This document shows positions 22,739 to 60,620 of a DNA stretch of 64,000 nucleotides, in pieces (positions within the stretch are counted from its first letter, which is position 1; every line of letters starts with the position of its first letter). The DNA comes from Escherichia coli. Lineage in GTDB: Bacteria; Pseudomonadota; Gammaproteobacteria; Enterobacterales; Enterobacteriaceae. The position numbers and the translations under genes were made by a program. The DNA lies in assembly GCF_016903815.1 (NCBI RefSeq), contig NZ_CP069973.1; one strand, given 5' to 3'. A model generated the notes under the pieces. That model did no database searches. It was not told the DNA's origin and saw nothing but the letters and a program-made list of their open reading frames with translations.

Positions 22739-23480
22739 TAAACAAGCCATTGCAGCGGCATTTGGTCGGGCAGCCGCGCACTATGAGCAACACGCAGAGT
22801 TACAGCGCCAGAGTGCTGACGTCTTACTGGCAATGCTCCCACAGCGTAAATACACCCACGTACTGGACGCGGGTTGTGGACCTGGCTGGATGAGCCGCCA
22901 TTGGAGAGAGCGTCACGCGCAGGTGACGGCGTTAGATCTCTCGCCGCCAATGCTTGTTCAGGCACGCCATAAAGATGCCGCAGACCATTATCTGGCGGGA
23001 GATATCGAATCCCTGCCGTTAGCGACTGCGACGTTCGATCTTGCATGGAGCAATCTCGCGGTGCAGTGGTGCGGTAATTTATCCACGGCACTTCGCGAGC
23101 TGTATCGGGTGGTGCGCCCCGGAGGCGTGGTCGCGTTTACCACGCTGGTGCAGGGATCGCTCCCTGAATTACATCAGGCGTGGCAGGCGGTGGACGAGCG
23201 CCCGCATGCTAATCGCTTTTTACCGCCAGATGAAATCGAACAGTCGCTGAACGGAGTGCATTATCAACATCATATTCAGCCCATCACGCTGTGGTTTGAT
23301 GATGCGCTCAGTGCTATGCGTTCGCTGAAAGGCATCGGTGCCACGCATCTTCATGAAGGGCGCTACCCACGAATATTAACGCGTTCGCAGTTGCAGCGAT
23401 TGCAACTGGCATGGCCGCAACAACAGGGGCGATATCCTCTGACGTATCATCTTTTTTTGGGAGTGATTGCTCGTGAGTAA
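22725..23480 (+). CDS. bioC: malonyl-ACP O-methyltransferase
   Basis: ORF track 264 aa; internal ATG ([14 protein letters not shown]) gives 251 aa; SAM-MTase motif LDAGCGPG. Confidence 0.9.
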
Positions 23481-24150
23481 ACGTTATTTTGTCACCGGAA
23501 CGGATACCGAAGTGGGGAAAACTGTCGCCAGTTGTGCACTTTTACAAGCCGCGAAGGCAGCAGGTTATCGGACGGCAGGTTATAAACCGGTCGCCTCTGG
23601 CAGCGAAAAGACCCCGGAAGGCTTACGTAATAGTGACGCGCTGGCGTTACAGCGCAACAGCAGCCTGCAGCTGGATTACGCAACGGTAAATCCTTACACC
23701 TTCGCAGAACCCACTTCGCCGCACATCATCAGCGCACAAGAGGGCAGGCCGATAGAATCATTGGTAATGAGCGCCGGATTACGCGCGCTTGAACAACAGG
23801 CTGACTGGGTGTTAGTGGAAGGTGCTGGCGGCTGGTTTACGCCGCTTTCTGACACTTTCACTTTTGCAGATTGGGTAACACAGGAACAACTGCCGGTGAT
23901 ACTGGTAGTTGGTGTGAAACTCGGCTGTATTAATCACGCGATGTTGACGGCACAGGCAATACAACACGCCGGGCTGACTCTGGCGGGTTGGGTGGCGAAT
24001 GATGTCACGCCTCCGGGAAAACGTCACGCTGAATATATGACCACGCTCACCCGCATGATTCCCGCGCCGCTGCTGGGAGAGATCCCCTGGCTTGCAGAAA
24101 ATCCAGAAAATGCGGCAACCGGAAAGTACATAAACCTTGCCTTGTTGTAG
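23473..24150 (+). CDS. bioD: dethiobiotin synthetase
   Basis: ORF track starts at an upstream non-ATG codon (TTG at 23467); GTG at 23473 gives the 225 aa form ([17 protein letters not shown]). Confidence 0.92.
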
Positions 24151-24161
24151 CCATCCTGTAT

Positions 24162-24213
24162 TTGGTTAAATTGCGAGCGAGATCGCGTCTTCGATTGACT
24201 GCAATTTAACCAA
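24162..24213. repeat. 13-bp inverted repeat (TTGGTTAAATTGC ... GCAATTTAACCAA) downstream of bioD
   Basis: Perfect 13-bp arms separated by about 26 nt; likely operon-end stem-loop. Confidence 0.4.
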
Positions 24214-24309
24214 TTAAATTCTAAAATAATCACGAAAAAAATTTTACTTCCGCATCATGCGATGTATGTGGGAATTGCCCAGGCGGCGGGGGATAGGGGC
24301 TGCAGACAG

Positions 24310-24332
24310 TTATCCACTATTCCTGTGGATAA
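24310..24332. promoter_or_regulatory. pair of inverted DnaA boxes upstream of uvrB
   Basis: TTATCCACT and (reverse strand) TTATCCACA 9-mers separated by 5 bp. Confidence 0.55.
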
Positions 24333-24634
24333 CCATGTGTATTAGAGTTAGAAAACACGAGGCAAGCGAGAGAATACGCGGCTTGCACGCGAATTGGCGT
24401 TAAAGACGGCTCAAAGAAATATCTTTTATTTTTTAACTGGTTAGATAATTGCAATGGCAGTCACTGAAGAGGCATCTCTTGCCATAAAACTGTCATCACT
24501 CATCTTGACAAATGTTAAAAAAGCCGTTGCTTTGGGGATAACCCGGTAAGGCCGGAGTTTTATCTCGTCACAGAGTAAATTTTGCTCATGATTGACAGCG
24601 GAGTTTACGCTGTAACAGAAATATTATGGTGAGG

Positions 24635-24654
24635 AACTGTTTTTTTATCCAGTA
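24635..24654 (+). promoter_or_regulatory. LexA (SOS) box overlapping uvrB promoter
   Basis: AACTGTTTTTTTATCCAGTA (CTGT-N8-CCAG) immediately followed by TATAAT -10 hexamer. Confidence 0.7.
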
Positions 24655-24728
24655 TAATTTGTTGGCATAATTAAGTACGACGAGTAAAATTACATACCTG
24701 CCCGCCCAACTCCTTCAGGTAGCGACTC

Positions 24729-26750
24729 ATGAGTAAACCGTTCAAACTGAATTCCGCTTTTAAACCTTCTGGCGATCAGCCAGAGGCGATTCGACGTCTC
24801 GAAGAGGGGCTGGAAGATGGCCTGGCGCACCAGACGTTACTTGGCGTGACTGGCTCCGGGAAAACCTTCACCATTGCCAATGTCATTGCTGATCTTCAGC
24901 GCCCTACCATGGTACTTGCGCCCAACAAAACGCTGGCGGCCCAGTTGTATGGCGAAATGAAAGAGTTCTTCCCGGAAAACGCGGTGGAATATTTCGTCTC
25001 CTACTACGACTACTATCAGCCGGAAGCCTATGTACCGAGTTCCGACACCTTCATTGAGAAAGATGCCTCGGTTAACGAACATATTGAACAGATGCGTTTG
25101 TCCGCCACCAAAGCGATGCTGGAGCGGCGTGATGTGGTTGTGGTGGCGTCTGTTTCCGCGATTTATGGTCTGGGCGATCCTGATTTATATCTCAAGATGA
25201 TGCTCCATCTCACGGTCGGCATGATTATCGATCAGCGCGCGATCCTGCGCCGACTGGCGGAGCTGCAATACGCTCGTAATGATCAGGCATTCCAGCGTGG
25301 TACTTTCCGCGTTCGTGGTGAGGTGATTGATATCTTCCCGGCAGAATCGGATGACATTGCACTTCGCGTGGAGCTGTTTGACGAGGAAGTGGAACGATTG
25401 TCGTTATTTGACCCGCTCACCGGGCAGATTGTTTCCACTATTCCACGTTTTACCATCTACCCGAAAACGCACTACGTCACGCCGCGCGAGCGCATCGTAC
25501 AGGCGATGGAAGAGATCAAAGAAGAACTGGCCGCCAGACGCAAAGTGCTGTTGGAGAACAACAAGTTGCTTGAAGAGCAGCGGCTGACCCAGCGTACCCA
25601 GTTTGATCTGGAGATGATGAACGAGCTGGGCTACTGTTCCGGGATTGAGAACTACTCGCGCTTCCTCTCCGGTCGTGGACCGGGTGAGCCACCGCCGACG
25701 CTGTTTGATTACCTGCCTGCCGATGGGCTGCTGGTGGTCGATGAATCACACGTCACCATTCCGCAAATTGGCGGCATGTATCGCGGTGACCGGGCGCGTA
25801 AAGAGACGCTGGTGGAGTACGGCTTCCGCCTGCCATCAGCGCTGGATAACCGTCCGCTGAAATTTGAAGAGTTCGAAGCATTAGCGCCGCAAACCATCTA
25901 TGTTTCGGCGACGCCGGGTAATTACGAGCTGGAAAAATCCGGCGGCGATGTGGTGGATCAGGTGGTGCGTCCAACCGGATTGCTTGACCCGATAATTGAA
26001 GTGCGGCCGGTGGCGACACAGGTTGATGATCTTCTTTCGGAGATTCGTCAGCGAGCGGCAATTAACGAACGCGTACTGGTTACAACTCTGACCAAGCGAA
26101 TGGCGGAAGATCTCACGGAATATCTCGAAGAACACGGCGAGCGCGTGCGTTATCTTCACTCCGATATCGACACCGTCGAGCGTATGGAGATTATCCGCGA
26201 CTTGCGTCTGGGTGAGTTCGACGTGCTGGTAGGGATCAACTTACTGCGCGAAGGTCTGGATATGCCGGAAGTGTCGCTGGTGGCGATCCTCGACGCTGAC
26301 AAAGAAGGCTTCCTACGTTCCGAACGTTCGTTGATCCAGACTATTGGTCGTGCGGCGCGTAACGTTAACGGTAAAGCGATTCTCTACGGCGATAAGATCA
26401 CCCCGTCAATGGCGAAAGCGATTGGCGAAACCGAACGTCGTCGCGAGAAACAGCAGAAGTACAACGAGGAACACGGTATTACGCCGCAGGGCTTGAACAA
26501 GAAAGTGGTCGATATCCTGGCGCTGGGGCAGAACATTGCTAAAACCAAAGCGAAGGGCAGAGGAAAATCGCGACCGATTGTTGAGCCGGATAATGTGCCG
26601 ATGGATATGTCGCCGAAAGCGTTACAGCAGAAAATCCATGAACTGGAAGGGCTGATGATGCAACACGCGCAAAATCTGGAGTTCGAAGAAGCGGCGCAAA
26701 TTCGTGACCAGTTGCATCAGCTGCGTGAGTTGTTTATTGCCGCGTCGTGA
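24729..26750 (+). CDS. uvrB: excinuclease ABC subunit B
   Basis: 673 aa ORF with Walker A (GVTGSGKT). Confidence 0.98.
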
Positions 26751-26758
26751 CAAGATGA

Positions 26759-26785
26759 CGAAGCCGGAATATTCTTCCGGCTTCG
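26759..26785. terminator. bidirectional hairpin between uvrB and ybhK
   Basis: GAAGCCGGAA-TATTC-TTCCGGCTTC perfect stem. Confidence 0.6.
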
Positions 26786-26787
26786 TG

Positions 26788-60590: not shown

Positions 60591-60620
60591 TTCTGCATGG
60601 TTATGCATAACCATGCAGAA
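60591..60620. terminator. 30-bp perfect palindrome, probable rhtA terminator
   Basis: TTCTGCATGGTTATGCATAACCATGCAGAA, 9 bp downstream of rhtA stop. Confidence 0.45.

Follow-up and report, generated by a model that had tools for sequence, protein, structure and literature searches.

The window analysed here, a 64-kb stretch of DNA, is part of an Escherichia coli chromosome, and the spacer under study is the well-studied bioD-uvrB intergenic region, which is bounded by two genes on the plus strand:

23473..24150, plus strand: bioD coding sequence, the final gene of bioBFCD (annotated by RefSeq in the strain 7/2 region, which is 100% identical; ORF list)
24729..26750, plus strand: uvrB coding sequence (ORF list; annotation of the matching strain)

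According to the ORF list and the annotation, bioD ends at 24150 and the uvrB ATG lies at 24729, which places the spacer at 24151-24728 and reproduces the length of 578 bp given by an earlier, sequence-only reading of this DNA. The spacer is 100% identical to that of E. coli strain 7/2 and 98.1% identical to that of K-12, and it was found once in 5424 of 5426 complete E. coli genomes. It differs from K-12 at 11 substitutions, none of which falls in any motif named below, and all motif sequences are those of K-12. Five of the substitutions (24254, 24262, 24263, 24265, and 24303) lie upstream of the DnaA-box cluster described below, four of them clustered at 24254-24265. For comparison, 80 related loci were retrieved via the UvrB N-terminus, covering Enterobacterales along with four Aeromonas genomes.

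The first feature downstream of bioD is an inverted repeat:

24162..24213, plus strand: perfect 13-bp inverted repeat (arms at 24162-24174 and 24201-24213), the proposed 3′ hairpin of the bio operon mRNA

The repeat begins 11 nt past the bioD stop, and its arms, TTGGTTAAATTGC (24162-24174) and GCAATTTAACCAA (24201-24213), flank a 26-nt loop and can be extended to 16 nt at 94% complementarity. The sequence-only reading had noted a perfect 13-bp repeat with this loop just after bioD, and the repeat indeed proved non-random: two perfect 13-bp inverted repeats with loops of up to 40 nt occur in the 64-kb window, compared with 0.045 expected from 200 first-order Markov simulations of 64 kb. The other one lies at 60591-60620 and has a 4-nt loop. 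The predicted RNA fold at the bioD-proximal repeat has a free energy of -20.9 kcal/mol (z = -4.6 relative to shuffles of the 68-nt stretch). The repeat occurs as a single copy in 5419 of 5426 E. coli genomes, which excludes a repeated mobile element.

Like intrinsic (Rho-independent) terminators, the repeat would place a stable hairpin directly behind an operon's final gene, with A/T-rich sequence beyond it; unlike them, it has an AU-rich stem with four G-C pairs in 13, a loop of 26 nt, and a tail, UUAAAUUCU, that contains no uninterrupted U-tract. A terminator scan made no call at the repeat, an Rfam scan of 23900-24900 gave nothing credible (two chance-level eukaryotic matches, E ~0.8-0.9), and bioD is not among the listed 3′ ends in one Term-seq dataset (PMC7815308 supplement). 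Among four diverged Escherichia sequences, E. albertii included, the arms carry four changes compared with about 16 in the equally long loop, a roughly fourfold difference. Three of the four arm changes are transitions that give G·U pairs in the plus-strand RNA and A·C on the other strand, and the remaining one, a transversion, breaks a pair; in the same four sequences, the 13-bp stem shows three one-sided G·U changes only and no compensatory double changes.

Among the compared loci, the repeat is restricted to Escherichia. In Citrobacter the arms are missing and the loop sequence survives in part. In genera with noncoding DNA after bioD (Kluyvera, Photorhabdus, Brenneria, Providencia, Edwardsiella, and Shimwellia), unrelated hairpins stand no more than 40 nt from its stop, some of them with T-runs. 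Our preferred reading, at about even odds, is that the repeat forms a 3′ hairpin in bio operon mRNA, either a weak terminator or an exonuclease barrier; such a hairpin would form in the bioBFCD transcript and mark or protect its 3′ end. Alternatively, the repeat may act as DNA, as the site of a dimeric protein or a cruciform, or may be a functionless scar from an ABC-transporter ATPase gene that was lost or never gained. The restriction to Escherichia, the noncanonical terminator features, and the presence of a convergent ABC_tran gene at the same position in Enterobacter, Kosakonia, and others would all suit these alternatives, which we nevertheless consider somewhat unlikely: the arm centres are 39 bp apart, too distant for a typical dimeric regulator, the arms are conserved roughly fourfold better than the loop, the single-copy status speaks against a mobile element, and all three arm transitions keep pairing only in plus-strand RNA.

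This convergent ABC-transporter ATPase gene occupies spacers of about 1.4 kb in Enterobacter, Kosakonia, Lelliottia, some Citrobacter, and others, and it is absent from Escherichia. The product has 240 aa (Pfam ABC_tran, E = 8e-23), and the gene overlaps the bioD 3′ end; it lies at 527-1249 on the minus strand of locus L008 and is present in about 20 other loci.

Downstream of the repeat, a cluster of DnaA boxes is followed by a conserved flank:

24310..24318, plus strand: DARS1 DnaA box I, TTATCCACT (motif scan; opposite in orientation to box II across a 5-bp gap; kept in 80 of 80 loci)
24324..24332, minus strand: DARS1 DnaA box II, TTATCCACA, a perfect consensus box and the DnaA-box6 of Wurihan et al.
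24336..24344, minus strand: DARS1 DnaA box III, TAATACACA, 3 bp from box II (matches the ChIP-seq Table 1 of PMC11317965)
24345..24386, no strand assigned: conserved 42-bp flank of box III (conservation profile)

Read on the plus strand, the core consists of TTATCCACT, ATTCC, and TGTGGATAA (24324-24332), so that boxes I and II face each other across 5 bp, and box III, oriented as box II, follows closely after 3 bp. This arrangement agrees with the published description of DARS1, in which two opposed 9-mer boxes, I and II, stand 5 bp apart, box II is a perfect consensus, and box III lies head-to-tail with box II (PMC6868365). The published double box cTAATACACAtggTTATCCACAg (PMC11317965) is the reverse complement of 24323-24345, which identifies TAATACACA at 24336-24344 as box III. 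Furthermore, the cluster occupies the orthologous position between bioD and uvrB, and compared with K-12 DARS1 (Fujimitsu et al. 2009; Sugiyama et al. 2019, PMC6868365), it has the same locus, box I-III sequences, orientation, 5- and 3-bp gaps, and position, with no differences in the core and all 11 substitutions elsewhere in the spacer. The inverted DnaA 9-mers together with box III are therefore DARS1, the DnaA-reactivating sequence upstream of uvrB. The sequence-only reading had correctly recognised the two inverted 9-mers but missed their identity as DARS1, box III, and a fourth box discussed below.

The core is also invariant across the survey: box I, a 5-bp gap, TGTGGATAA, a 3-bp gap, and box III precede uvrB in all 80 loci, with box III reading TAAT[A/G]CACA in 63 of them. 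DARS-like sequences have been stated to be conserved in many proteobacteria, and our survey agrees. Within the 64-kb window, box II is the sole perfect DnaA consensus box. When one mismatch from TTATCCACA is allowed, the whole window contains 25 such 9-mers compared with 11.6 +/- 3.5 in dinucleotide shuffles, an approximately twofold excess that was reached in none of the shuffles.

The best-established job of the DARS1 boxes is the regeneration of ATP-DnaA for replication initiation, not control of uvrB. In K-12, ADP-DnaA bound to box II recruits protomers to boxes I and III, a Gln208-dependent head-to-head AAA+ contact releases ADP, and the resulting apo-DnaA then rebinds ATP. At the present locus, DnaA-ADP on box II would recruit protomers to box I (head-to-head) and box III (head-to-tail) in the same manner, and release of ADP through the head-to-head contact would thus allow DnaA to reload with ATP. 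ADP release has been reconstituted in vitro on a 70-bp DARS1 fragment, with dependence on the head-to-head boxes (PMC6868365), and full release in vitro is reported to require a 42-bp flank past the last box (Fujimitsu 2009, as quoted in PMC4585315). This reported flank coincides with the conserved block at 24345-24386 in our alignment.

The remaining part of the spacer contains the uvrB promoters, in which the following elements were located:

24635..24654, plus strand: uvrB SOS (LexA) box AACTGTTTTTTTATCCAGTA, identical to the published box (matrix score 23.5 bits)
24653..24658, plus strand: P2 -10 hexamer TATAAT (the LexA box is stated to lie between the P2 -35 and -10)
24662..24696, plus strand: P1, with -35 TTGGCA at 24662-24667, -10 TAAAAT at 24685-24690, and +1 at 24696 (promoter scan, 10/12 matches with 17-bp spacing; primer mapping)

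The bare consensus CTGT-N8-ACAG, with one mismatch allowed, is non-discriminating (21 matches in the window compared with 17.6 expected), and a 20-bp LexA weight matrix was used instead, built from 26 other E. coli SOS boxes with uvrB excluded. With this matrix, 24635-24654 takes rank 1 among about 64,000 positions, its 23.5 bits exceeding the training-site median of 20.7 bits. The box forms a CTG-N10-CAG palindrome, A/T-rich at its centre, and overlaps the core promoter of a gene for DNA repair; it lies in the P2 spacer, 44 bp upstream of the P1 +1. The sequence-only reading had described a CTGT-N8-CCAG LexA box abutting a TATAAT hexamer; both were reproduced at the same coordinates, with CTGTTTTTTTATCCAG at 24637-24652 and TATAAT directly 3′ at 24653-24658, and the box it named is the one that heads the matrix scan. 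CTG-N10-CAG is conserved in the orthologous promoters, at a similar distance from DARS1, in 75 of the 80 loci, being absent from the four Aeromonas loci and Edwardsiella hoshinae, and the length of about 330 bp between DARS1 and the SOS box is constant from Escherichia to Proteus. The invariance of the DARS1 core in 80/80 loci and the persistence of the SOS pattern in 75/80 therefore indicate that both elements are under selection.

Four primers of PMC6015884 map exactly onto the window (-567 = 24129, -280 = 24416, -77 = 24619, and +33 = 24728), which fixes the P1 +1 at 24696. Because the same study puts LexA-box1 between the -35 and -10 of P2, the abutting TATAAT is the P2 -10 (PMC6015884). 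P3 is located by the primer limits within 24129-24416, where it overlaps DARS1. When the motifs are compared with the mapped promoters, as the sequence-only reading had proposed, P1 and P2 thus agree, and P3 can be placed only within this interval. From the hexamer and a P1-P2 distance of 31 bp, which Sancar reportedly gave in 1982, we infer a P2 start near 24665. Relative to the published uvrB P1, P2, and P3 promoters with their LexA box (Sancar 1982; van den Berg 1985; Wurihan 2018, PMC6015884), there is full identity in the SOS box, the P2 -10, and both P1 hexamers, and the numbering fits exactly; the one difference is a G/T polymorphism, also distinguishing the spacer from K-12, at position 24633, which belongs to the P2 -35 region immediately 5′ to the SOS box.

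In its right half (24645-24653), the SOS box reads TTATCCAGT, a weak, two-mismatch DnaA-like box that corresponds to DnaA-box1 of Wurihan et al. Most Enterobacterales have CCAG at this half and not the LexA-consensus ACAG, so that the DnaA-like reading is preserved. The extra LexA boxes 2-4 of Wurihan et al. were not accepted as candidates, being far from the consensus: apart from box1, the best 20-mer in the spacer scores -0.4 bits with our matrix. Elsewhere in the window, the second-best matrix match is TATTGGCTGTTTATACAGTA at 44688-44707, the dinG SOS box, 15 bp before the dinG start (44722); its score is circular, since the dinG site was in the training set. The annotation of the matching strain 7/2 marks dinG as frameshifted and has a RelE/ParE toxin gene just upstream.

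Joint control of uvrB by LexA and DnaA is broadly right and already published (Wurihan 2018, PMC6015884). LexA binds its box and represses P1-2, and DnaA binds the inverted boxes and represses P3; LexA-box1 is footprinted by LexA in DNase I assays, mutation of its CTG leads to threefold derepression, and the chromosomal uvrB gene shows additive derepression in lexA and dnaA(A345S) mutants (PMC6015884). The same paper also cites van den Berg 1985, and the DnaA part of this control rests mainly on reporter fusions and one dnaA allele (PMC6015884). As published work shows, LexA on a box that fills the P2 spacer next to the -10 blocks P2 until SOS induction, and DnaA bound to DARS1 boxes that overlap P3 also represses P3. 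The combined SOS and DnaA input on uvrB proposed by the sequence-only reading accordingly stands as published joint repression, although that reading omitted the role of DARS1 in replication control.

Another reading is that the DnaA boxes are chiefly a titration or repressor site for P3, with DARS nucleotide exchange being secondary in vivo. A TG-to-CA mutation of box II derepresses P3 5.9-fold (PMC6015884), the ChIP signal is modest (coverage of 16 compared with 78-213 at DARS2; PMC11317965), and DARS1 is described as supportive relative to DARS2, all of which would fit such a priority. We nevertheless consider it quite improbable, given that the 70-bp DARS1 fragment releases ADP in vitro via the head-to-head boxes and that cells with DARS1 deleted are larger, contain fewer origins, and have a smaller share of their DnaA bound. 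The weight of the deletion evidence is limited by the extent of the allele used in several studies (primers in PMC4585315), which maps to 24162-24603 here and takes with it the bioD-proximal inverted repeat, P3, the IHF-like site, and the distal DnaA box (the last two are described below), so that the phenotypes cannot be cleanly assigned to the core alone.

A broader question is whether the inverted repeat and the DnaA and LexA boxes together make up a single integrated region for the transcriptional control of uvrB, as the sequence-only reading held. Repression of uvrB reporter fusions by DnaA and LexA each, and the higher activity of the full-length region compared with P1-2 or P3 alone (PMC6015884), are consistent with such integration. 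However, the DnaA cluster has an independent and better-documented biochemical function as DARS1, and it is conserved together with box III and the 42-bp flank, both of which are needed for ADP release. As for the repeat, its position 11 nt past the bioD stop, upstream of every mapped uvrB promoter element, its absence outside Escherichia, and the occurrence of other hairpins at this bioD-proximal position elsewhere make a link to uvrB unlikely. Taken as a whole, a single integrated uvrB control region is an unlikely description of the spacer. All four motifs named by the sequence-only reading exist at the coordinates it gave and exceed chance; two corrections apply, in that the DnaA boxes number three and constitute DARS1, and the inverted repeat is to be counted with the bio operon side. 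The spacer is very probably a composite of three separately acting elements, each already characterised or ordinary, namely a proposed bio-side hairpin, DARS1, and the uvrB P2/P1 promoters. The locus is already known, and in it the recharging of the replication initiator (DARS1) and SOS-controlled excision repair (uvrB) share DNA.

The comparative data additionally drew attention to two features between DARS1 and the promoters:

24431..24443, plus strand: IHF-like 13-mer TTTTAACTGGTTA, two mismatches from WATCARNNNNTTR
24533..24541, minus strand: distal (fourth) DnaA box TTATCCCCA, with one mismatch, on the same strand as boxes II and III (motif scan)

The distal box (TGGGGATAA) is almost invariant and lies 206-214 bp (~209 bp, or ~20 helical turns) from box II in 73 of the 80 loci, with variable flanks. 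The IHF-like 13-mer is invariably found 106-107 bp past the box II start, midway to the distal box. In the alignment, 34 of 81 loci, including those of Serratia, Proteus, and Kosakonia, match the IHF core consensus WATCARNNNNTTR perfectly at this position, and a further 33 of 81 deviate by one mismatch, compared with a background of 0.08 per kb for the IHF pattern in the rest of these loci. The site has decayed to two mismatches in Escherichia, Citrobacter, and some others. In vivo, DnaA occupies the spacer according to ChIP-seq (PMC11317965), with a summit at 813,331 (NC_000913.3), in which numbering the core spans about 813,107-813,141 and the distal box about 813,330-813,338. The summit position corresponds to about 24534 here, 195 bp before the uvrB ATG, and thus falls on the distal box, about 200 bp downstream of the core, for which reason the DARS1 core may not be the sole or main DnaA site in vivo.

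Reviews describe DARS1 as core-only and activator-independent, and E. coli DARS1 is reported to be activator-independent; the published DARS1 descriptions that we found contain neither an IHF site nor an architecture of a distal box with an IHF site at the midpoint. On the basis of conservation and spacing, we tentatively raise the possibility, which we rate as improbable at present, that DARS1 exceeds the three-box core and is folded by IHF with the distal DnaA box in most Enterobacterales. An IHF-induced U-turn halfway between them would bring the distal box back onto the core, in the manner of datA, oriC, and DARS2. If this extended model were true, DARS1 in most other genera could be IHF-gated, and the decay of the IHF site in Escherichia would therefore make E. 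coli DARS1 look activator-independent. Upon confirmation, the comparative observation could extend the DARS1 model. DARS2, located upstream of mutH, shares with DARS1 the order of box I, 5 bp, box II, 3 bp, and box III as well as extra downstream DnaA boxes, but its core boxes are of low affinity, and it requires IHF and Fis. As a template for the DARS1 architecture it was rejected, since its second core-like module lies 316 bp away and not 209, and the resemblance is general only.

Several minor features were noted in the course of the analysis. The block TTGACAAATGTTAAAAA (24506-24522), 10 bp upstream of the distal DnaA box, is kept in Enterobacteriaceae and Erwiniaceae and contains a perfect TTGACA, with no -10 at a usable spacing on the plus strand. 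A terminator-like hairpin at 24543-24555 was discarded, as its conservation fails even in E. albertii. An open reading frame through DARS1 (24257-24403, 48 aa), whose frame is also open in Enterobacter, was rejected as coding because its conservation lacks a three-base periodicity and does not extend to the N-terminal part. Beyond the spacer, a perfect 12-bp hairpin with a 5-nt loop at 26758-26786 starts 8 nt past the uvrB stop and is likely the uvrB terminator.
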